From contig OY970176.1 in the NCBI GenBank assembly GCA_963707955.1, forward strand, positions 256,001 through 320,000: a DNA stretch of 64,000 nucleotides, in the 5' to 3' direction. A program made the position numbers and the translations under genes. Numbering within the stretch: position 1 is the stretch's first letter; each line of letters starts with the position of its first letter. This DNA comes from Candidatus Bathyarchaeota archaeon (GTDB lineage Archaea; Thermoproteota; Bathyarchaeia; Bathyarchaeales; Bathycorpusculaceae). Positions 3,204 through 64,000 of this stretch are shown piece by piece. A model generated the notes under the pieces. It saw only the letters and a list, made by a program, of their open reading frames with translations, made no database searches and was not told where the DNA came from.

Positions 3204-4382
3204 ATGAAAGAGGCGTCTGAAAAAGAACAGAAACGCATTCTTGTTCTGTGCGTGGACAGAGACGATGATCTAGGAACTAAGGCAGGAGTCAAGACGCCCG
3301 TTGTGGGAAGGGAAGAAAACCTCGATGCTGCGGTATCCTTGGCTCTGAAGGACCCTGAGGAACCTGACGCAAACGCCATCTTCGAGGCAGTACGCGTATA
3401 TGACCGATTGAAGGCAGATGACAAGCCGGATGAAGTCGTTCAGGTGGCAACTCTATCTGGCTCTGAACTTGGAGGGGTTAGCGCAGACAGAAAGGTTGTC
3501 TCTGAACTGAACGACCTGCTCGGTTCATTTTCTGCAAGCGAAGTAATTCTCGTGACTGACGGATACTCAGACCAAGCAGTCTTGCCAGTTGTTCAATCCA
3601 GGGTGCCCGTATCGTCTGTCAGAAGGATAGTCGTGAAGCACAGTGAGTCGATAGAGGAGACAGCTGCCCTCTTCTGGAAGTATCTCAGAACCGTAGTGGA
3701 GAATCCGCGCTACTCACGCATCGCACTGGGCTTGCCTGGTTTGCTCATTCTGATCCTAGCAATCTTTTCGATCGTCGGCTTTGTCCAGTATTACGTAATA
3801 GCCTTCGTGCTTGTCTTAAGCGTGTCCCTGCTTGTCAAAGGATTCGGAATAGACAGGATGGCTAAAGGTTTCTACAGGTGGATCAGAGAGTATTCCCCGC
3901 CGCCTCTTCGAGTGCAGATTTCAAGTTTCTCTGGGATCGCCGGAGTCTTGTGCGTAGTGCTTGGCGTCTACTTAGGTTGGACCACGGCCGCACCTGAGGT
4001 TTCTGTCCAAAGCAATATTGCTGGATATCTAAGTATCCTGCCTAGAGTCGCGGGCTTTTTCATCAGCGGCGCCATCTTTCTCATTGTGGTCGGGATTTGT
4101 GTAGCCCTATTAGGCAGAGCCATCAGATGGTACCTCGAACGTGACGCCAGACTGCTGCGCAACGGGGCGTTGATCGTCACGGTCGCTTGGTCCACAGAGA
4201 TTTTCCTCGCAGTTTCGGACCTGTTGACAGGAAATGCAGGGCCTGACAGGGTTGTTTTCGCGATACTTATCGGCATCTTAATCGGCGTGGCCTCGGTGCT
4301 TGTAATATTCGTCCTACACCGACGCGCAAAGGAATTTTTCCGCGAGACCGAAGAACAGGTCGAAGAACTTGGTGAAAACTAG
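3204..4382 (+). CDS. DUF373 family membrane protein
   Basis: LVLCVDRDDDLG, DPEEPDAN, VTDGYSD; C-terminal TM helices. Confidence 0.9.
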   Translation: MKEASEKEQKRILVLCVDRDDDLGTKAGVKTPVVGREENLDAAVSLALKDPEEPDANAIFEAVRVYDRLKADDKPDEVVQVATLSGSELGGVSADRKVVSELNDLLGSFSASEVILVTDGYSDQAVLPVVQSRVPVSSVRRIVVKHSESIEETAALFWKYLRTVVENPRYSRIALGLPGLLILILAIFSIVGFVQYYVIAFVLVLSVSLLVKGFGIDRMAKGFYRWIREYSPPPLRVQISSFSGIAGVLCVVLGVYLGWTTAAPEVSVQSNIAGYLSILPRVAGFFISGAIFLIVVGICVALLGRAIRWYLERDARLLRNGALIVTVAWSTEIFLAVSDLLTGNAGPDRVVFAILIGILIGVASVLVIFVLHRRAKEFFRETEEQVEELGEN

Positions 4383-5946: not shown

Positions 5947-7185
5947 TTAAGCTCTTTTGCGTGCGCTCACTATCGAGACGACATCTCTGTCCCTCAGAAC
6001 GTAGTCTTCGCCAACTCGCTTGCCCTCTCTCGCCTCAGCCGCGTATATGAAGCCCTCTCCCAACTCTGTGTGAATTATGTAGGCAAGCTGACGTGCGGTC
6101 GTGCCGTACGGCACAAGATAGGCGTCAGGCAACACTCTTCCCGCGTGGTCGCTCAGGTGTTCCAAGTCTTCGACAGGATAGACTGTTATCATGTTCAACA
6201 GTTTGAAAAAAGCCGTGTTCACCGCTTCTTGAACCCCTGTTGAGCCGGAGTCGAAGAGGATCTTCTCTCTTATTATTTCCAACGCTTTGACTTGACTTTC
6301 ACTGAGTCTTTCAGGCGCGTTTATTTTGAAGTTGCAGTCTCCAGGCCTGTAGTCTATCAGCTGTTTCTCGGCGGCTCGTCTCAGCGCAAGCTCCGCCTCT
6401 GCGCAGACTGGGACGACAAGGCGGTTCGATTCCCTTAACCGCTCCAGGTTCGCCTGTGAAGTGGGAATGTCCATCTTGTTTGCAACGATTAACATTGGTT
6501 TAGAAACTTGTCTAAGCATGTTTACAAACGTTAGAAAATCTTCGTCACTCCAAAACGTTAGCTTCTCGCCGCTCAAGCCTGTTTTCCTTAGCGCTTCAAT
6601 AAGATGACCTCTTCTTATTCCGAGGCCGCTCAAACGCTCTTCTAGCAAAGTGAAAAGGTCTTTTGATTCGGCTTCTGTTGTTCTCGCAATCTTAGGCCAG
6701 TCCTTTTTCAGTATGGTCGCCATCCACATTGTTATCTCATGTTCCAGGAACCTTACGTCTTCCAGAGGATCATGCTCGCCTTGTTTGCAGAGTCTCCCTT
6801 CGCAGTCCGTTCCCCCAGAGGCATCAACGATGTGAATCAGCACATCTGCCTTTCTGATTTCGTCCAGGAACTGGTTGCCCAAGCCTCTTCCTTCCCATGC
6901 ACCGGGCACTAGCCCCGCGCAGTCGATAAACTCTATGGGGATCAGTCTCACGCCGCTCATGCAGATGGAGTTAGCAGGATTGTCGCTGACGTTAAACTCT
7001 TCGTGGACGCAGGGGGTTCGAACGTAGCCTACTCCTCTGTTGGGCTTTATCGTGGTAAAAGGGTAGTTTGCTATTTCGGCTGGCGCAAGAGTTGCTGCAC
7101 TAAAGAAAGTTGACTTGCCCGTGTTGGGCTTTCCAACGATGCCCAACAGCCTCGAATAGGATTTCTGCATGTCACATCTCACCAA
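5947..7185 (-). CDS. ychF: Obg-family redox-regulated ATPase YchF (archaeal), TGS domain
   Basis: GKPNTGKST, NYPFTT, DCAGLVPGA, GLGNQFL, NKMD. Confidence 0.9.
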   Translation of the reverse strand: MVRCDMQKSYSRLLGIVGKPNTGKSTFFSAATLAPAEIANYPFTTIKPNRGVGYVRTPCVHEEFNVSDNPANSICMSGVRLIPIEFIDCAGLVPGAWEGRGLGNQFLDEIRKADVLIHIVDASGGTDCEGRLCKQGEHDPLEDVRFLEHEITMWMATILKKDWPKIARTTEAESKDLFTLLEERLSGLGIRRGHLIEALRKTGLSGEKLTFWSDEDFLTFVNMLRQVSKPMLIVANKMDIPTSQANLERLRESNRLVVPVCAEAELALRRAAEKQLIDYRPGDCNFKINAPERLSESQVKALEIIREKILFDSGSTGVQEAVNTAFFKLLNMITVYPVEDLEHLSDHAGRVLPDAYLVPYGTTARQLAYIIHTELGEGFIYAAEAREGKRVGEDYVLRDRDVVSIVSARKRA

Positions 7186-50169: not shown

Positions 50170-50486
50170 TTTTAAATACCTTAAGTCTTTGCCTGAAAAA
50201 GCGCGGCCTATGACTACCCTATTCCAATATGCATTATTCAGAGTAGTATAGCGCACGTTCAAGCTCTCTTTTCAATGTTCGTAGAGAATCCCTTTCGTTT
50301 ACTCAAGGTTAACCTCGACTACAAAAGCATCAACAAAACACTCCAAAAATGGGGATGGACGGGAGACATCCCCATCCGAACGCAAGTACCTCACCCCGCC
50401 CACTATTTAGTGACCGCATAGGCTTTTCTCATCAATATTGATATAAACCAAGAGCGGTAATATCAAACAGAAAAAAGGGGAATTGG

Positions 50487-51852: not shown

Positions 51853-52120
51853 GAAACGCGCTGTGCCCTGAGACAAAAAGCCCAATTTCTAAATTGTTCT
51901 TGCCACAGAAACGTTGTTTCGTATACAAAAGCATCAACGCAGTTCGTTCCTTCAGACTGCTTCACCCGTGCGCGGTTCCTTCGTCCAGAAGCGGGCTCCG
52001 CACTCAAGATCACAATCATTTTGAGTTCATGGGGCCAGAGTCTTCATTGCCCGCCACGCAAAACTAAAAGTATCCCACATAAAAAGCTTATACGCATCGC
52101 ACAAGTTGCTGTGAGACCTG

Positions 52121-54196: not shown

Positions 54197-54273
54197 TGGG
54201 GCCGGGGCCGGGATTTGAACCCGGGCGCTAGGCTCCACAGGCCTATAGGCTACCAAGCTACCTCACCCCGGCC
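54197..54273 (-). tRNA. tRNA-His(GTG), encoded G-1 and CCA, no intron
   Basis: GGCCGGGG acceptor, TAGGC-CTGTGGA-GCCTA anticodon arm, GGTTCAAATCC T-arm, CCCCGGCC-CCA. Confidence 0.96.
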
Positions 54274-56524: not shown

Positions 56525-57316
56525 CTACGACCGTTCAAAAAGGTAAGTCACTACACCCTCCAAGATTCTTCGATGGACTTCTTTCTTGAGCTCCATCTTG
56601 TACGATCGAGACTTCCACGTAGGAAGTCCTCTGAGGGGGAGGTCCCCTATCCTAATTATGCCCGCCGCCTTCTTACCGTAATAGCCCGCTAAAGCGTACA
56701 GCACCGAAAGTTCCATATCAACTGAAACAACTCCTTGGCTCTGCAGCCTCGTGAGGAGCTGCTTCGTTTCTGAAAGGAAGAACGGCACTGTTGCATGAAC
56801 TCCTCCGTGGACCTCTATTCCGAGGCTTCTCACGGCCTTTTCAACCATCAGCTTCAACGTTTTCCACAGGTCTTCGTCAGCATCTGCTGGAGCTTCAGGC
56901 GGCAAGATTATCTCCAGCACCTTATCGAGTCGCATGCAAGAAGGTGGCATGTTAACGTCCCCCGTCTCCACACGTTTGCCTATTCCTCCGCCTGTCCCGA
57001 CGAACAGTATCTCCTCTACGTTTCTGCAGTGGCAGAGAACAATGGTTGAGTCCGCGAAATTTGACGCTCCTGTACCACCCTCACAGAACAAAGCCGATTT
57101 CTGATCATTCCAAACCAAGAAACCGCTCCGAACTCTCCTAAAGTCAAAGGCTTTCGAGGTCATGGTTGTTTGAAAATCTTCAAAACACTCATCAACCCTC
57201 ACAGGGCTTATCACGACGCTCGCGGGCATCGCTGCTGGGCTGAGACCAAAGCCGAACTCCGTGGCCCACTTGAGCGCGCTGCCCTTCAGCTCACCATAGG
57301 TCAAATCATTGTTCAC
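56525..57316 (-). CDS. Nucleoside phosphorylase-family protein
   Basis: GTGA, FVGTGGG, SVDME. Confidence 0.75.
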   Translation of the reverse strand: MNNDLTYGELKGSALKWATEFGFGLSPAAMPASVVISPVRVDECFEDFQTTMTSKAFDFRRVRSGFLVWNDQKSALFCEGGTGASNFADSTIVLCHCRNVEEILFVGTGGGIGKRVETGDVNMPPSCMRLDKVLEIILPPEAPADADEDLWKTLKLMVEKAVRSLGIEVHGGVHATVPFFLSETKQLLTRLQSQGVVSVDMELSVLYALAGYYGKKAAGIIRIGDLPLRGLPTWKSRSYKMELKKEVHRRILEGVVTYLFERS

Positions 57317-57707
57317 CTATAACCTGTATGATCACTGTTCTCCTTCTCGGATGAGTGTCCGTCTCCACGAAGAGCAAGGACTGCCATGTCCCGAACTCGA
57401 CGCGACCATCAATTACTGGCATCGTCCTGTCAGGCGGAAACAAAACTGACCTCAGATGTGAGTGCGCGTTGGAAGGGTGCCCATACTTCCCCTGCTTTGG
57501 AACCAGCTTCTCCAGAAGCATCTTAATGTCCTCTAACAGGCCGTACTCGTTCTCGGTCAAGACCAGCACACCCGTCGCATGCGGCGCGAACACGTGTACC
57601 AAACCTTCCTTGACGCCAGACTTGGCAACGGTTTCCCCGACCTCGTCTGTCAAGTCGATAAACTCTATCTCGCCCTTCGTAGAAAAGCTGTAAGTTGTGC
57701 TAAACAC
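57306..57707 (-). CDS. yjbQ: YjbQ/UPF0047 protein
   Basis: HATG..TENE, H..NAHSHLRS, GTWQ. Confidence 0.9.
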   Translation of the reverse strand: MFSTTYSFSTKGEIEFIDLTDEVGETVAKSGVKEGLVHVFAPHATGVLVLTENEYGLLEDIKMLLEKLVPKQGKYGHPSNAHSHLRSVLFPPDRTMPVIDGRVEFGTWQSLLFVETDTHPRRRTVIIQVIGEQ

Positions 57708-57729
57708 TTTGCATCCCGGCACGAGCCTC

Positions 57730-58278
57730 TCACTCCAACAGCTTTGCCATCGCTATCTCGTCTATGTACTTCCTTTCCTTGAAATGCTTTTTTGGAACCC
57801 GGCCAGTCTGCACAAACCCAACCTTCTCATAAACGTGAATTGCACGCTTATTGGTCGCAAAGACAGAGAGTACCAGAACCTTCAAACCGATCCTTTGGGC
57901 TTCCTTCACAATAGCCCGCATGACCCGCGTTCCAATGCCCAAATCCCTGAAACCGCTCTTGACAGCTATGCCAACCGCACTGGCACGCTTCTCGGAGCCT
58001 CTACCCACGTGGAGGTCAGAAGACGCAACAACCTTTCCATCCACCTCTGCAACCAAGAAAAAGATCTGACCCTTTTCCAGACGAAGAAGCACGCCGGAAA
58101 GCCACTCAGCCTCTTGCTCTCTTGACAGCTTCTCGTCCACAATTACCTCAGCCTTCTCCTCCACAAGCGAGTTAATGAGTTCCAACAAGTCGTCCAGGTC
58201 TTCCCACTTTGGAGTTCTCAAGACAACCCTGCGCCCGTCTTTAGCAGAGAAAGTCTCGAGGATTTTGCCCGACTTCAT
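57730..58278 (-). CDS. GNAT acetyltransferase
   Basis: FRDLGIG, NKRAIHVYEKVGF. Confidence 0.9.
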   Translation of the reverse strand: MKSGKILETFSAKDGRRVVLRTPKWEDLDDLLELINSLVEEKAEVIVDEKLSREQEAEWLSGVLLRLEKGQIFFLVAEVDGKVVASSDLHVGRGSEKRASAVGIAVKSGFRDLGIGTRVMRAIVKEAQRIGLKVLVLSVFATNKRAIHVYEKVGFVQTGRVPKKHFKERKYIDEIAMAKLLE

Positions 58279-58332
58279 AAGCCAAGCTAAGGCAGCACAA
58301 CTTTAATACCTTTTCAAACCGCTCGCTCTAAA

Positions 58333-58965
58333 TAGCCCCGAGACGAAGTGACCGGGGTGATGCTTTCGTATACACGGCCTTGCGCGTCGCGGAAAGCTGG
58401 GGGCTTTGGTGACATGTTAAAAACCCCTGCAATACTGTGGTCACTGAGGCCACCAGCAAGTAATCTAGATATGTTAAGCAAGCCAGAATTTCGCACTCTT
58501 GGCCTACAGTCGACAGTACAAACATGTGCACTCATGGGGGAGACGCCAGAATTTGGCTTCATTAGTTCTCAAATCCGCCCCGCAGAAGTTGGTGAAAACC
58601 CCTGAATCTGCCTCGGTGTAGGGATGCTGGCGTAGACAATAGCATCGCCAAGAGTCAGTTCGGAGCATCGGCTAACACACTGCCGGGTGCCTGGTCAAAA
58701 GAGCTGGTTCTGCCCTAGAAGGCGGTAGCCGATGGGCCAGGTTTGTGCGCAGGACACATGTGAGAACGATTTGGGTTCACAAGGCACTATCTCACAGTAC
58801 ACATTAGGCAAACAGCACGTGCAGTATTTGGAGTTGTATGAGTATTGGTCAGGTCTCCTAACGGTTTAGCTCTAAGTCATTGGAAAGGGTCGAAGTAGTT
58901 ACGAAGGTCTAGGCTGCTGGGTTCGCATGGAGATTTTCGTCGGTTCTTCTATGAGGCCCCGACCA
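58333..58965 (+). ncRNA. Candidate ~630-nt structured RNA of unknown family
   Basis: TTTAATA box at 58302; no credible ORF; many nested helices with G-U pairs on the plus strand; ends ...CCCCGACCA next to an integrase. Confidence 0.5.
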
Positions 58966-59155
58966 TCCACGTTATGAACCTATCCCTCAGATTTAAGGTT
59001 CTTTCGCCAAAACAAGCCTATTTCATAAAGTCGGTTTTGAGTGGTTTTTGACCATTCACTTCGAGAAAAAGCATGGTATGTTTCGAAGAAAGTCCATGAA
59101 AGCGAAGGTTTTTCGAAGTTTGATGGTCTTTTTCCATGAAAACTACTTCGAAACG

Positions 59156-59908
59156 CTAGGCTACCGGGTACTTCTCATATCTACGTCTCAAGTATGGCTG
59201 AAGACTGCGCGGATCCGCTTTAGTCTTATCTGTGACTGCCATAATGTCATGGTCCATCATGTCATAGTCATAGTTGTAGCCGAAGGCTCTCAAAAAGTGC
59301 TGAGTGATGTTTGGCAGTAAGGCTTTCACGATTTGCCATTCTCTCTTAACCCCGGCGATTTGAACGCTGTATCTATGCCTAACCGTTCCATCATGCAGCG
59401 TGTAGTCATGGCCCTTAATCAGATACCTTCTTTTCGTTAAGCTAAATGCGAACAGTCTAGGCTGATTCTTTGACCTTTTTCCTTCCTTGTCATATTCAGT
59501 TATGTCCTCTAGGTATTCCAGAATCAGCTTTGTAAAGCGCGCGCGCTCACCTTTCAGTGGCAGCCTCGCGGTTCGAAACAGAATCTTGTTAGCTTTCCTC
59601 TTGCCAACCAGAACGCCGAAGACGTTGATGTATGTCTGAGAGTCTTCTTTGTCGGCTGTGTGTTTCTCAAAGTTATCCGGCGTCAGTGGCAGGACTTCGC
59701 TGGCTCTGAAGTCACCTAGATAGAGTAGGGCAACGAGAGCGCGGTCCCTTCGCTGATAGAAGGCCATGTTAGACTTGTAGTCGATGCCAGGACTTTTCAT
59801 CAAGTTTTCATAGAGCTCTTTCGGTGTTGGATACTTCTCTATCTGCAGCAACGTGAGCCTAGAGGGTTTCTTATCTGAATCTTTTGAGGCCAAAGTCCTT
59901 CGCTTCAC
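59156..59908 (-). CDS. Tyrosine recombinase/integrase
   Basis: LYLGDFRASE, GKRK, QHFLRAFG, C-terminal PY. Confidence 0.8.
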   Translation of the reverse strand: MKRRTLASKDSDKKPSRLTLLQIEKYPTPKELYENLMKSPGIDYKSNMAFYQRRDRALVALLYLGDFRASEVLPLTPDNFEKHTADKEDSQTYINVFGVLVGKRKANKILFRTARLPLKGERARFTKLILEYLEDITEYDKEGKRSKNQPRLFAFSLTKRRYLIKGHDYTLHDGTVRHRYSVQIAGVKREWQIVKALLPNITQHFLRAFGYNYDYDMMDHDIMAVTDKTKADPRSLQPYLRRRYEKYPVA

Positions 59909-59946: not shown

Positions 59947-60759
59947 TCAATTCTGAGAATCGGTTTCATGGTTTGCATTACCACTTCGCTCTGCGTTACG
60001 TGTTACGCTCGCATACTCGCTGCAAATCTTGATAATACTTCTTTTTATTTGCTCACGACTCAACTTAGTGATAGTTTCTATTTCAGCGATAGACTTCCCC
60101 TCTGCACGTAACTGTGCAACCTGGCCGTCTCTATCTAGGTTGCCTAATGGTAACTTCTTTTTTAACGTGAAGATTGCAACATCCTTAGAGTTAAACCTAA
60201 TAGAAGTTCTAGGTATGTTACATAAAGTCCATGATTTTCCAGATACACGATCATTGATGATTGCGGTCTGTCTGCTAACCTTGTGAATGTATAAGTCAAG
60301 GATGTCCGTGTCTAGGATTTTGCGGTCTATGAAAACGTGGCTCGGGCTGATGGCAATAAAGCCACAGTCATAATGCCTGCACATTTGGATAACGTCAAAG
60401 ATTTCCACGTTCTTTTGACTCATAAAGCGCATCCTTCCCAAGTGGATCCCCGCTTCGTCGAGGATGTAGAGTTTCTTGCCGGGCCTCTGCAGCCATAGTT
60501 TAAGGCTCTCGAGATCTGTGATCTGTGCTTCTATCATGTAGCTTTCAGTCTTGATGTTCGTGGCTATGTGAGTATGATATTTTTGAACGTAGCATATTTC
60601 AGCTAGAAGCAACGAGAAATCTGTCTTGCCCTTATCCTTCCGGCCTTTGATGACAATTACGAACCCATCTTGTTCTAGGATAGGCTCAATGTCAGGGATG
60701 ATAGGAACAAGGACTTCAGCCTTACTTGTTGGCGGCCTGGCTAATTCTGTCCCGGACAT
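59947..60759 (-). CDS. Zot-like P-loop ATPase with C-terminal HTH
   Basis: KGRKDKGKT, ATNI, ILDEAG, RH; GKSIAEI..LSR. Confidence 0.7.
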   Translation of the reverse strand: MSGTELARPPTSKAEVLVPIIPDIEPILEQDGFVIVIKGRKDKGKTDFSLLLAEICYVQKYHTHIATNIKTESYMIEAQITDLESLKLWLQRPGKKLYILDEAGIHLGRMRFMSQKNVEIFDVIQMCRHYDCGFIAISPSHVFIDRKILDTDILDLYIHKVSRQTAIINDRVSGKSWTLCNIPRTSIRFNSKDVAIFTLKKKLPLGNLDRDGQVAQLRAEGKSIAEIETITKLSREQIKRSIIKICSEYASVTRNAERSGNANHETDSQN

Positions 60760-61066
60760 TCTTAGCACTCACGGTTTTTGATTGATCGCCCACGATCATG
60801 GACAGCCTGGTCAATTCGCCAAACCTTTCCATGCCTTCGACAATTCCGTTATAGTGAATGAGCTCTTTAATAAATTCCATAGTGTCCATACCGCTTCTCA
60901 AATCTTCTAAATGGTCCAGAACCCATAAAGCAATGGCAGTGTCAGGGTCAAGCCTTGCGATTTCGACATACTCAGGGAACTTTTTGCTAATGGCCATACC
61001 TAGCGTTAAATATTGCTGAAATCTGATGTAGGCGTCTTCCTCGTTTCTTCTATTTCGTTCAGTCAT
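60722..61066 (-). CDS. Hypothetical protein
   Basis: ORF in operon. Confidence 0.6.
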   Translation of the reverse strand: MTERNRRNEEDAYIRFQQYLTLGMAISKKFPEYVEIARLDPDTAIALWVLDHLEDLRSGMDTMEFIKELIHYNGIVEGMERFGELTRLSMIVGDQSKTVSAKNVRDRISQAANK

Positions 61067-61639: not shown

Positions 61640-63037
61640 TCATGGTAGCGCACCCTCGGAACTTAGTAAACTCTGTAACTTCGTTACAAGTTCATAACCA
61701 TACTTTTTGGCAACCTTCCTAAGCTTGATGAGATCAAACTCGTAGCCTCTGACAACTACATCCTTCCCTTCGGAATCCTTCTCTCGCATAGCCTTAGACT
61801 TTCCGCTTATAACTTCTCTTAGGCGATAACCAACTTTATTCTTCGTGACCTTGAAGAAGTCACCAGTATCCATTTCGTTTGGCTTGTTCTCATTCAGTTT
61901 TCCGTCTAATTCAAGGCCTAATTCTTCCCATATCTTCTTTAAAGGCAGAGAATAAATTTGAGCCTTAGAATCAATTTGAGCCTCGTTGCATAGGTCCACA
62001 ACTACCTTAACGATTTTGCCCTCTAAAGTGTCCTGGCGGCCGCTTAACCTGGCTTTCCTCTGGTCTTCGACAAACCGGTACAAATCGCTGTAGATTGGAA
62101 GGTCACTCGTTATCTGCAGGATAGGCTTCCACAGTTCCTTGAGTCGTCCTTTCACGGTTAACTCAACATTTGGCAAGTCCTCTTGTCTACTGGTCATTCG
62201 CCACTTCAGAAGCATGTTTCTAAGGGTCCGTATGCGTTCTTTGTCAGTTCTTGACAAGTCACACCATTCTTTTTGCGGTGAGCCTTCAACCATAGACAAA
62301 AACATGAATCTCTCGTTAAACCCCTTCACTTGCGGTATCTGTTCACTAGCGCAAGCCTTGAAACAGAATGTTCGGTAATACTTGATTATGCGAGTGAAAT
62401 TCGTCATCAGAGTCCTCGGCACTACGGCGCCTTCTTTGTATCCGGCCTTGTAAATTTTGATTTTATCCGTGTCCTTTTGGATTCCTTGAACTTCATCCTC
62501 GAGTATGCAGCCTTGACCGTCAGAATCTTCCAAGTAGCCGTAGAGGTCAGCCGAAGGAATAGTGACGCCGTACATAGGCCGGTAGCATAGGCTCTTCAAG
62601 ACTTGCAGAACAGTTGATTTGCCACTTTCGTTATCGCCATAACAGAACAGGTACGGAACGGTCTGCAGTTTCTCTTGTTGATAGGTTAACAGTGTGCAGG
62701 CTGTCAAGACGTCTTTCCAAATAGGTTCAACGTCTATCCACGTTTCAAACTCGTTTCTAACCTGTCGGGCTAATTCCTCTCTTCCCGGCGTTTCTTGTTT
62801 GCAGTAGCCGTAAGGCTCGTATGGAATGTTCTGCCTCTCTTTTGGACTGATCGTTTCCTCTGCAAACTCTATCGTTTCGACCAGGCTGAAGCTGCCACCA
62901 TTCAACCGTAGAAAATAGGGTTTATCACTGTCATAGACAGCTTCAAAGCAACCATTCGAAAGAATGCCGGAGTCTTTGAGTTTCTTCCGTTGCTTCTTGT
63001 CTTTTTCTGTTTCTTCAAGTTCTTCAGTGAAGGCCAT
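61640..63037 (-). CDS. Primase-associated P-loop NTPase/helicase (DUF3631-like)
   Basis: TVPYL..GDNESGKST, ILEDE, GYKEG, R..ELW.P. Confidence 0.75.
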   Translation of the reverse strand: MAFTEELEETEKDKKQRKKLKDSGILSNGCFEAVYDSDKPYFLRLNGGSFSLVETIEFAEETISPKERQNIPYEPYGYCKQETPGREELARQVRNEFETWIDVEPIWKDVLTACTLLTYQQEKLQTVPYLFCYGDNESGKSTVLQVLKSLCYRPMYGVTIPSADLYGYLEDSDGQGCILEDEVQGIQKDTDKIKIYKAGYKEGAVVPRTLMTNFTRIIKYYRTFCFKACASEQIPQVKGFNERFMFLSMVEGSPQKEWCDLSRTDKERIRTLRNMLLKWRMTSRQEDLPNVELTVKGRLKELWKPILQITSDLPIYSDLYRFVEDQRKARLSGRQDTLEGKIVKVVVDLCNEAQIDSKAQIYSLPLKKIWEELGLELDGKLNENKPNEMDTGDFFKVTKNKVGYRLREVISGKSKAMREKDSEGKDVVVRGYEFDLIKLRKVAKKYGYELVTKLQSLLSSEGALP

Positions 63038-64000
63038 GTTTCTTTATCTCCTGCACGACTTCGCGGATCCCTGATATTCCTTTGAGGCATCTTTTGAGGC
63101 GGTTCTGATAGTGATAGTCAACTGAAGCAAGTCTAATGGCTCTTTGATCGTCACCGGTTCTCAGAACGACCTCTTCAATTATGCGTCTTGCCGATTCAAT
63201 GGAAACGCCTTTCCTCAGGCAGAAACCGAGAAAGTACATTTCAAGGTCGTTACGATAACCATGTATCCAATACTTGCACAGAAACGCTACGGATTTTTCC
63301 TCTTCCCTATTGCTTAATGGCTTGAAAGTCTTAGGCAGATTAAACATGGCTTGAACGTTGCTTTTCTGTTTTAAACTCAATATTCTCGCTATATCTGCTT
63401 CGCTGAAGCTGATGCCTTGAAAATCTGATAAGTACGTGTTCGGTAGAGGCGTCCAGGCTTCATGATCAAGTATTCTGGACCACTTCTGTTCTTTTTGGTG
63501 AAGGCCTAGAGGCAGCTTAACGAAGTTGCCGTAAGGCCGGTCTTCTGTCAACTCTGTTTGCTTCGGGAAAACCTCAACTTCCTTAGGATTCAAGTTTGAG
63601 AGCTCAAGTATGCGGTAGCCTAGCCACTGCGCCACTTTCGCGTCGACTGCAGGCGCGAAGAATATCCACACGTGAAAACTCGGATCAGAATATCGGCTTG
63701 CTTCCAACATGACGGCAGAAGGCCATATTCTAGGCTTCGGGGTTCCTTCCTCTTCCTTCACTTCGAAAATAACCGGCAGCAACTTGAGGACTGTTGTTTT
63801 CGGTTCTTTCAGTTTTTCCGGGTCAAAGTCAAAGCATAGGTACTTGACCGTGTTATCTGTGCCTAATTGATAGCTGCCAACAGTCTTACGACCCTGCAAG
63901 TGGTCGTTAAGCTGTTGAAAGGTCAACGGTTCCGCTATTCGACTGTAGCTTCCATCCTTATTCTGTTGACAATAACAGTCTTCCCGGTTCACGAAGAGGT
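63024..64000 (-). CDS. AEP primase-polymerase (TOTE-type domain) with PriCT-like tail, 5' end at window edge
   Basis: HLQG..TVGSY, CFDFD, FHVWIFF, EVFPKQ, GNFVKLPLG, GYRN. Confidence 0.85.
   Translation of the reverse strand, partial: LFVNREDCYCQQNKDGSYSRIAEPLTFQQLNDHLQGRKTVGSYQLGTDNTVKYLCFDFDPEKLKEPKTTVLKLLPVIFEVKEEEGTPKPRIWPSAVMLEASRYSDPSFHVWIFFAPAVDAKVAQWLGYRILELSNLNPKEVEVFPKQTELTEDRPYGNFVKLPLGLHQKEQKWSRILDHEAWTPLPNTYLSDFQGISFSEADIARILSLKQKSNVQAMFNLPKTFKPLSNREEEKSVAFLCKYWIHGYRNDLEMYFLGFCLRKGVSIESARRIIEEVVLRTGDDQRAIRLASVDYHYQNRLKRCLKGISGIREVVQEIKKHGLH

Follow-up and report, generated by a model that had tools for sequence, protein, structure and literature searches.

What is the DNA at positions 58333 to 58965 of the window, the 64,000-nt stretch of a Candidatus Bathyarchaeota genome analysed here (contig OY970176.1, positions 256,001 to 320,000)? 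Little is known of the non-coding genome of the abundant, uncultured Bathyarchaeia, or of target choice by their mobile elements. An earlier note, made from the letters alone, had taken this region at the border of an integrated element for one highly structured RNA or ribozyme of about 630 nt, either a host gene used as integration target or part of the element. We found that a conserved core of about 110 nt, specific to one Bathyarchaeia family, is a previously undescribed attachment site that is not a tRNA gene, and that it is accompanied by a repeated 18-mer box. The core is the chromosomal attachment site (attB) of mobile elements, whereas a single large structured RNA or ribozyme was not supported. 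As a whole, we give only a little less than an even chance to the reading that a modular, non-coding locus, single-copy in that family, has its left two thirds at 58333-58965. Literature searches, with supplements outside their scope, brought up no account of this locus in the article parts covered, and the available parts of a study of Bathy-6 metagenome-assembled genomes (MAGs) mention a 46.8-kb provirus with an integrase and not this site (PMC11697101). In the following, G000 is the window's own genome, G001, G007, G010 and G003 are relatives from the same genus, and L-numbers denote single loci or contigs.

The earlier note had suggested looking for a duplicate of the 3' end of the region at the far end of the element. 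Such a duplicate was found, since the 3' part recurs at the far end of a 5.9-kb element. The left direct repeat (attL) covers 29 nt at 58932-58960, and its second copy, 93% identical, lies at C1:320871-320899 of G000 (64871-64899 in window numbering). This copy is 871 nt outside the window, at a distance of 5,939 bp from attL. In three same-genus genomes (L002, L003 and L004) the site is empty and the sequence reads straight across the junction, as ...GAGGCCCC|AGCGAAGTCCATGCC..., also given as ...TATGAGGCCCC|AGCGAAGTCCATGCC...; the AGCGAAGTCCATGCC continuation of these empty sites is exactly what follows the second repeat in G000. Bases from 58961 onward are element DNA, and the host-encoded 3' arm of the core's hairpin (see below), with all downstream DNA, has been displaced to the right repeat (attR), just beyond the window. 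Part of what had been drawn as the 3' end of the RNA therefore has to be given up: the GTCGG/CCGAC pair (58939/58959) is present, but this helix and the terminal ACCA straddle the insertion junction and are partly element DNA.

A further copy of the site was found in a viral contig, L185 (IMGVR_UViG_3300032069_000017, 51 kb). Positions 3650-3710 of this contig contain an attP-like copy of the central 29-30 nt of the core, carrying TTTTCGAGGGTTTTTATATGAGGCCCCAG with unrelated flanks; the arm after it has motifs of the TTTTCTATGGAAAAG type, similar to those that follow the core in the host. It was the only convincing one among 74 hits of a loose pattern. Five ORFs (open reading frames) near this copy were compared with Pfam, and none matched an integrase family. 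The presence of this 29-30-nt segment between unrelated flanks in L185 indicates that the site is used by a second kind of element as well. Together, the attL/attR direct repeats, the empty sites in relatives and the viral copy bear out the proposal that a host locus served as the integration target. The crossover would fall within GATTTTC..CGGTTCTTCTATGAGGCCCC. A precise attB/attP pair for at least two element types should help to recognise integrated elements in MAGs and may be of use for later genetic tools. Pipelines built to find islands flanked by tRNA genes would overlook integrations at this site, which is not such a gene.

The homologs that the earlier note had called for were obtained with BLAST, with a covariance model of the core (R1) and from public contigs, and the locus proved to be conserved in relatives. 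The core reads CTCGAAG-N6/7-CGAA ... GCTTCGCATGGAGATTTTCG-NN-GGTACTTATATGAGGCC-NN-GATATTCTCCATGCC, and its left, host part occupies 58878-58960 on the plus strand (TCGAAG-N6-CGAAGG ... TTCGCATGGAGATTTTCG..GGTTCTTCTATGAGGCCCC). R1 matched the window at 58878-58984 with 58.9 bits. When genomes were searched under the stricter filters of Infernal, R1 gave exactly one match in 21 of 22 genomes of family f1, each at least 85% complete, and no match in any of the 128 genomes that represent 29 further families within the class. BLAST matched the full 680 nt only in three same-genus genomes (90, 80 and 75% identity). The last 45-90 nt matched in 25 of the 36 same-family genomes searched and in none of 24 that belong to the order's other families. 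A pattern scan of public contigs returned the core in at least 120 contigs, from whose listed matches the neighbour counts below are drawn. Nearly all the listed titles name Bathyarchaeia or Bathyarchaeota (one is labelled Bathy6); the listed exceptions are three named for Acidobacteriota and three named only archaeon, Thermoproteota or Crenarchaeota. Contigs L035, L072 and L090 hold the core together with flanking genes in MAGs titled Acidobacteriota (Acidiferrales, Acidoferrum and Sulfotelmatobacter), and are probably mis-binned archaeal DNA.

As a general rule, attB sites of tyrosine recombinases lie in tRNA genes and, in bacteria, also in tmRNA genes, according to the parts available of PMC8371274. 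The core resembles such sites in being a short, highly conserved, hairpin-forming, single-copy non-coding crossover site; in that the element carries a 29-30-nt identity segment and a substitute for the displaced downstream part; and in that an integrase-like gene adjoins attL and unrelated elements share the site. Unlike them, it has a 9-bp outer stem and a 14-18-nt loop, its transcription is putative, and neither ARAGORN nor Rfam detected a tRNA: ARAGORN reported 0 genes in 21 loci, and the Rfam tRNA model (RF00005) had no match in 58200-59200 (E<=10) or in seven uninterrupted loci (E<=1). The intergenic target, not a tRNA gene, recalls the AT-rich intergenic attB of prophage PsiM100 of Methanothermobacter wolfeii, as described in the same source. 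It differs from that attB in that the target of about 110 nt is conserved family-wide and is embedded in a more extensive non-coding locus that is conserved too, and this implies a function for the host.

The region is ORF-poor, as had been stated: the gap at 58279-59155, between a GNAT acetyltransferase gene on the left (57730-58278, minus strand) and a 250-aa ORF on the right, contains no ORF longer than 90 aa. A coding reading was rejected, with six-frame similarity occurring in all frames and only around the core, and with indels among relatives that are not multiples of three. Conservation was followed in a profile of 99 sequences and in three alignments, namely A1 (52 loci), A2 (108 core sequences) and A3. 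In A2, variation within the core showed no period of three.

We then come to the proposed large RNA. The complementary segments listed for it are indeed in the sequence: ACTCTTGGC at 58495 with GCCAAGAGT at 58647, CATCGGCTA at 58666 with TAGCCGATG at 58726, and TGTGAGA at 58759 with TCTCACA at 58790, besides the GTCGG/CCGAC pair already mentioned. However, the region folded no better than shuffled sequence. Its minimum free energy on the plus strand was -203 kcal/mol, compared with -211.9 +/- 8.3 kcal/mol for 20 dinucleotide shuffles (z +1.08), 18 of which folded at least as well; for the minus strand, z was -0.56. No compensatory signal for a large RNA appeared in clade- or genus-level alignments; these are the tests that count, because cross-clade alignment of the variable parts is unreliable and the lack of covariation there has limited power. 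Tested against column-shuffle controls, two clades (16 and 10 sequences) gave a consensus folding energy of about 0 across most of the region. The clade of G000 itself (n=4) had negative energies, but only 1 of 9 alignment windows departed from the shuffles, about equally on both strands. RNAalifold gave -1.78 kcal/mol on A1.

Substitutions within the predicted helices were also followed in relatives. Single substitutions preserved the pair in 13/33, 14/64 and 19/57 cases in the three closest relatives, and double changes were canonical in 0/3, 4/10, 3/6 and 22/43 cases (within-sequence null 16.3 +/- 2.7, p 0.03); the minus-strand fold gave the same picture. An apparent covariation, found when the minimum-free-energy structure of G000 was laid over an alignment of five sequences of the genus (30 double-change pairs versus 13.8 after shuffling), was discarded, as it was inflated by one divergent sequence and vanished under the within-sequence null; that shuffle control ignores relatedness, and one of the five sequences is only 53% identical. 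The identity of the 660-nt unit was 0.90 in G001 (third codon positions of GNAT 0.885 and of LonB 0.918), 0.80 in G007 (0.87 and 0.87), 0.78 in G010 (0.87 and 0.84) and 0.53 in G003 (0.57 and 0.52). Most of the unit is close to neutral, changing at or above the rate of third codon positions. The earlier note had itself named absent covariation and folding no better than shuffles as findings that would speak against a large RNA, and both were observed.

The large bacterial non-coding RNA families OLE, GOLLD and ROOL are defined by strong covariation. The likeness to them lies in the size class and in the no-known-family status proposed for the region, and it ends there, as this locus is without covariation and evolves near the synonymous rate. 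For screening, the case calls for caution: ORF-poor DNA beside an integrase, with many helices drawn by hand, folded no better than shuffled sequence and lacked compensatory changes.

The judgement that the region belongs to no known RNA family held, with no Rfam 15 match at or above the gathering threshold at the locus or in the uninterrupted and distant counterparts scanned. The best matches below threshold were mir-361 (20.9 bits, threshold 70) and snoR116 (16.1 bits, threshold 47), and Rfam found only a tRNA-His, at 54.2 kb, in the whole window. RNase P RNA, suspected from AGCGAAGTCC, was rejected, because RF00373 matched at 846859-847165 (187 bits) and not at the locus; likewise, the signal recognition particle (SRP) RNA was found at 685422-685736 (RF01857, 152 bits) and not here. 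Rfam scans and inspection by eye, with no dedicated search tool, revealed no C/D-box or H/ACA small RNA. Antisense pairing with rRNA was discarded too, the best cases being exact 10-12-mers with E values of 0.2 or worse.

If the region is not one RNA, how is it built? The 99-sequence profile and alignments A1, A2 and A3 all showed conservation in separate blocks rather than continuously. From left to right, the blocks are a box at 58300, box B1, GGTGAC ... GTAATAC ... TCACC, ATTTCGC..GGCCTAC, box B8, a variable spacer and the core. The first of these (CTTTAATA at 58300-58307, within 58298-58312 on the plus strand) lies between the GNAT start and B1, is promoter-like, and resembles the cGAAAg + CTTAAATA boxes upstream of G000 tRNA genes. 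We infer its direction and use, and the divergent GNAT gene could equally be served by it.

The B box is 18-21 nt long, and two copies, GTTGATGCTTTTGTATAC and its complement, stand in inverted orientation 273 nt apart. B1 (CGGGGTGATGCTTTCGTATAC, 58353-58373, plus strand; family consensus TTTGTTGATGCTTTTGTATAC) scored 29.9 bits with a position weight matrix (PWM), and B8, its reverse complement at 58632-58652 on the minus strand, scored 22.4 bits. B1 was found less than 900 nt upstream of the core in most loci with enough upstream sequence. B1 and B8 kept a steady spacing, within 252-275 nt in most of the 52 A1 loci and within 241-275 nt in all, while B1 stood at about -424 to -774 nt from the core. 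Furthermore, pairs of the box with a spacing of about 251-271 nt are present in further families of the order that gave no match to the core. The variable distance to the core and these pairs without a core indicate that the box module and the core are separate units. Between the two boxes lies an inner inverted repeat, GGTGAC ... GCAATAC ... GTCAC / CACCAG (58404-58456, plus strand), with a GGUGA/UCACC helix in 4 of 6 clade alignments and in A1 and with little covariation (GC 50, UA 50 and similar counts). A proven long-range helix between B1 and B8 was rejected: it showed no covariation, and columns 17/327 held C.A 13 times versus C-G 2 times. Its cells comprised 45 G.U on the plus strand versus 62 A.C. 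To the right of B8, the fast-evolving spacer (58653-58887), which holds the 58666/58726 and 58759/58790 helices, had low profile conservation and a consensus energy of about 0, and G010 lacks about 50 nt of it.

The B box is also a dispersed intergenic repeat, with 1-8 copies per genome in relatives versus 0-2 hits of a control pattern. Two solo boxes in the window, one at 50317-50337 (minus strand, PWM 22.4 bits) upstream of a RIO1 kinase gene and a perfect 18-mer at 51921-51941 (minus strand, 34.0 bits, the best of the genome) downstream of a KH-domain gene, flank this RIO1 / KH-domain (Pno1/Krr1-like) gene pair, and a few more were found at distant sites of G000. In G012 (L146, C24:30500-47500), a stretch of 14 kb contains eight B boxes, placed between convergent, divergent or tandem genes. 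The neighbours in L146 include LonB, a Tsr3-like ribosome-biogenesis gene and a 138-aa ORF of UPF0047 size. With a B1-B8 module of about 290 bp, terminal inverted repeats of 18-21 bp and solo copies of the repeat dispersed between genes, the boxes resemble miniature inverted-repeat transposable elements. Unlike such elements, the module occupies the same place beside the core across the family and is also found in other families of the order, with one pair per genome and conserved internal blocks. No multi-copy set of full-length B1-B8 modules was seen, and elsewhere only solo boxes were found.

What, then, does the host use the core for? Tentatively, and from sequence evidence, we favour a putative small plus-strand RNA gene of about 130 nt that is used as attB, and we rank a protein-binding DNA element a close second. 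In the small-RNA reading, the transcript would start near CTCGAAG, 37 nt before TGGAG, and would stop about 87-89 nt after TGGAG, at a T-run that keeps its position among the sequences; in G000 it would begin at about 58890, cover attL and reach into the arm of the element. A protein or another RNA would bind to the conserved loop, the single-stranded working part. Integrases would exploit the core in the way they exploit tRNA genes, and the element would bring a replacement for the 3' part that it displaces. A fuller version, which we hold more loosely still, is that the core of about 110 nt may be the gene of an undescribed, family-specific, single-copy small RNA of Bathy-6-type Bathyarchaeia, with an invariant 17-nt working loop and serving as landing site for several unrelated elements in the manner of the attB sites in tRNA genes, and that the B box may mark a new DNA- or RNA-binding system at a few neighbouring intergenic sites.

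Several features of the core are consistent with a small-RNA gene. CTCGAAG (YCGAAB) was found at -37/-38 in 106 of 108 sequences, and the first run of four or more T after +50 was present in 108/108, at a median of +89 and with 64 in the +80 to +89 bin; positions of A2 set by the search pattern are invariant by construction, and an independent BLAST set showed the same conservation, with a few changes. An AAAGT box stood 36-38 nt before CTCGAAG in 36 of the 52 sequences having it, a spacing that agrees with the GCAAAGTTTTATAG box 37 nt before the SRP RNA of G000. The core can form an imperfect hairpin, GCATGGAGA ... loop GGTACTTATATGAGGCC ... TCTCCATGC. In A2 (n=108), 84.5% of the cells pair, compared with 35-46% when the partner is slid. 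The hairpin was predicted in 6/6 clade alignments, and the plus-strand energy was below the minus-strand energy in five of them.

A number of observations weigh against a small RNA. The column-shuffle z was significant on both strands, as expected of a DNA palindrome. Covariation in the core was marginal, with 5 pairs changed on both sides versus 6.3 in shuffles and a score of 0.127 versus 0.121 that was reached by 33 of 500 shuffles, and RNAalifold on all 108 core sequences gave only -1.07 kcal/mol. Runs of five or more T fall inside the proposed RNA in 26/108 sequences, including relatives of G000 with GGTTTTTATATG. Integrated elements restore the 3' hairpin arm only partly. The loop centre CTTATATGA, with CGAGGG before it, resembles the BRE/TATA boxes (B recognition element and TATA box) of G000 and could be a promoter. 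A transcript over the core is putative.

Several of these points suit an element that acts purely as DNA, which we consider somewhat less likely than the small RNA. The core would then be a promoter, an operator or another protein-binding site, its BRE/TATA-like centre lying between inverted GGAGAWWWTCG arms, the B boxes would bind a sequence-specific protein, and no stable RNA would arise from 58333-58965. Besides the local BRE/TATA likeness of the loop centre and structure z-scores that are alike on both strands, this would fit the block-wise conservation of primary sequence, with intervening spacers that vary but keep their length, the lack of covariation in B1/B8, core and genus-level tests, and the 2.3-fold and 3.5-fold enrichment over shuffles of runs of five or more A and T, respectively. 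It would fit the B boxes equally well, with their convergent, divergent and tandem contexts in both orientations, their clustering in G012 and their copy numbers above those of a control pattern. On the other hand, about 55 contiguous bp conserved across a family of more than 25 genera would be unusual for a promoter, and the plus strand folds better than the minus strand in 5/6 clades. Moreover, LonB lies to the right of the core, at +333 to +381, in only 37 of the at least 120 loci, among the matches listed; as the right-hand gene varies, no constant regulated gene is evident. The analysis points to a conserved core and a repeated 18-mer whose partners are to be found.

A single plus-strand non-coding transcript of about 700-900 nt, largely devoid of stable structure, running from the 58300 box through B1, B8 and the core and acting via single-stranded blocks, is improbable. 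It would account for the promoter-like box about 55 nt before B1, for ORF-free stretches of similar length left of the core in different loci (median 613 nt where there is a left-neighbour ORF), and for an A- and C-rich plus strand (A 0.35, G 0.18) that in G000 58330-58960 has no run of five or more T. However, the depletion of T-runs, tried as a sign of a long transcript, was rejected, because across 107 sequences such runs on the plus strand were enriched, with 118 observed versus 33 expected. The bulk of the region evolves like third codon positions (0.80 versus 0.87 in G007; 0.78 versus 0.84-0.87 in G010). The variable distance from B1 to the core and the B1-B8 modules without a core in other families also argue against a single transcript.

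Still less probable is a relic without host function, in which the region would be left over from past integrations, and elements carrying the core would keep it uniform by integrating and excising again and again. Elements do carry diverged copies of the downstream arm, and wherever LonB is not at +333 to +381 the right flank is variable, AT-rich and often ORF-poor, up to 2.9 kb in L050. Yet the left arm GCTTCGCATGGAGA and the CTCGAAG block, absent from the element and virus copies, are as conserved as the shared att segment, and exactly one copy has been kept in 21 of the 22 family genomes.

Least probable of all is a chromosomal landmark, that is, an extra replication origin or segregation site with B boxes and CCATG-centred repeats as sites for an initiator or partition protein: the long intergenic region, the clustered repeats in both orientations (4 boxes within 8.3 kb here, and the cluster in G012) and immediate native neighbours that are transcribed away from the locus would suit it, but the two Orc1/Cdc6 genes are found at 692 and 1457 kb and the locus at 314 kb, where neither the skew nor the gene-strand curve turns, the cumulative AT skew peaking at 1.45 Mb. 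In its favour, B8 (58632-58650) shares the octamer TATACAAA with ATTATACAAAC, the 11-bp ucm element of Sulfolobus origins (PMC12141716, parts available); this match is only a lead and may be due to chance, and the same parts of that source report the ucm-binding protein only in Sulfolobales and Desulfurococcales. The mini-ORB (origin recognition box) hallmark, TTCC ... GAA with four bases between (PMC1904270, parts available), is not matched by TTCCATAGAA, which has three, and the DNA between the boxes is not AT-rich in G000 (GC about 0.50-0.52). The locus thus lacks the marks of a replication origin, and an origin without a linked initiator gene is the form of this reading that remains. With the Thermococcales dif consensus (PMC4640148, Table 2, as available), which may not be that of Bathyarchaeia, no 11-6-11 dyad was found in G000, the 2 pattern hits having 5/11 arm matches each. 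The core itself was rejected as a dif (Xer) site, because such a site has 6 bp between its inverted arms, and those of the core are separated by about 20 nt (GGAGAWWWTCG) or about 31 nt (GCATGGAGA).

The DNA to the right of the core in G000 is an integrated plasmid-like element of 5.9 kb, extending from 58961 to the window end and on to position 320870 of G000 (L021 1-1500), with all ORFs on the minus strand. They comprise an integrase-like ORF, a DnaA-like ATPase with a helix-turn-helix (HTH) domain, three small ORFs, a 465-aa ORF and a primase-polymerase. The element begins with a non-coding arm (58961-59155). This arm is a diverged copy of the DNA that natively follows the core, and the two share the motifs TTTTCCATGAAAA and TTCGAAACGC; G009 has a related arm (81-96% match). 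The native DNA between attR and LonB (L021 1530-1876, 340 non-coding bases) had genus identities of 0.94, 0.93 and 0.87, above those of third codon positions of the flanking genes, and contains a TTTTCATGAAAA palindrome and TTCGAAACGC repeats.

As the earlier note had said, an integrase-like ORF (250 aa, 59156-59908, minus strand) does point at the region. Its identity rests on a weak match to the XerC tyrosine recombinase model TIGR02224 (E 0.0039, 16.6 bits, cut-off 335), with no family found in Pfam or PHROG, and its role as an integrase is suggested by its position beside attL. It is followed, also on the minus strand, by the ATPase/DnaA-like ORF with a C-terminal HTH (273 aa, 59947-60768; phrog_1979, 1.2e-11; phrog_5484, DnaA-like, 9.7e-6; HTH_7, 0.0055), by the 465-aa ORF (61640-63037), which matched no family in Pfam, PHROG or a third profile library, and by the primase-polymerase of the AEP type (63024-64000 and past the window end; PF22548, 8.8e-26; phrog_5362, 5.3e-21; NF040561, 1.9e-25).

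On the native left side, a GNAT match lies near the core in 22 of the at least 120 loci, among the matches listed, and in 11 of 12 sampled loci the left neighbours are ORFs sharing one conserved sequence of about 140 aa. The left ORF of this size in L050, the only one scanned, matched the Hjc model NF040854 with an E value of 3.3e-13, below the model cut-off. A UPF0047 gene (57306-57722) lies to the left of the locus in G000, while in L050 a 138-aa ORF resembling UPF0047 by eye is found about 2.9 kb to the right (6414-6830). Both are transcribed away from the locus, on opposite sides, which points to an inversion with a breakpoint at the locus. As for stable RNA genes, the tRNA-His at 54197-54272 is the only tRNA in the window. 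ARAGORN reports only 26 tRNA genes in G000, so many of its tRNAs are probably intron-bearing or atypical. The rRNA genes of G000 are unlinked, with the 16S gene at 707791-709284 and the 23S gene at 1028718-1031758.

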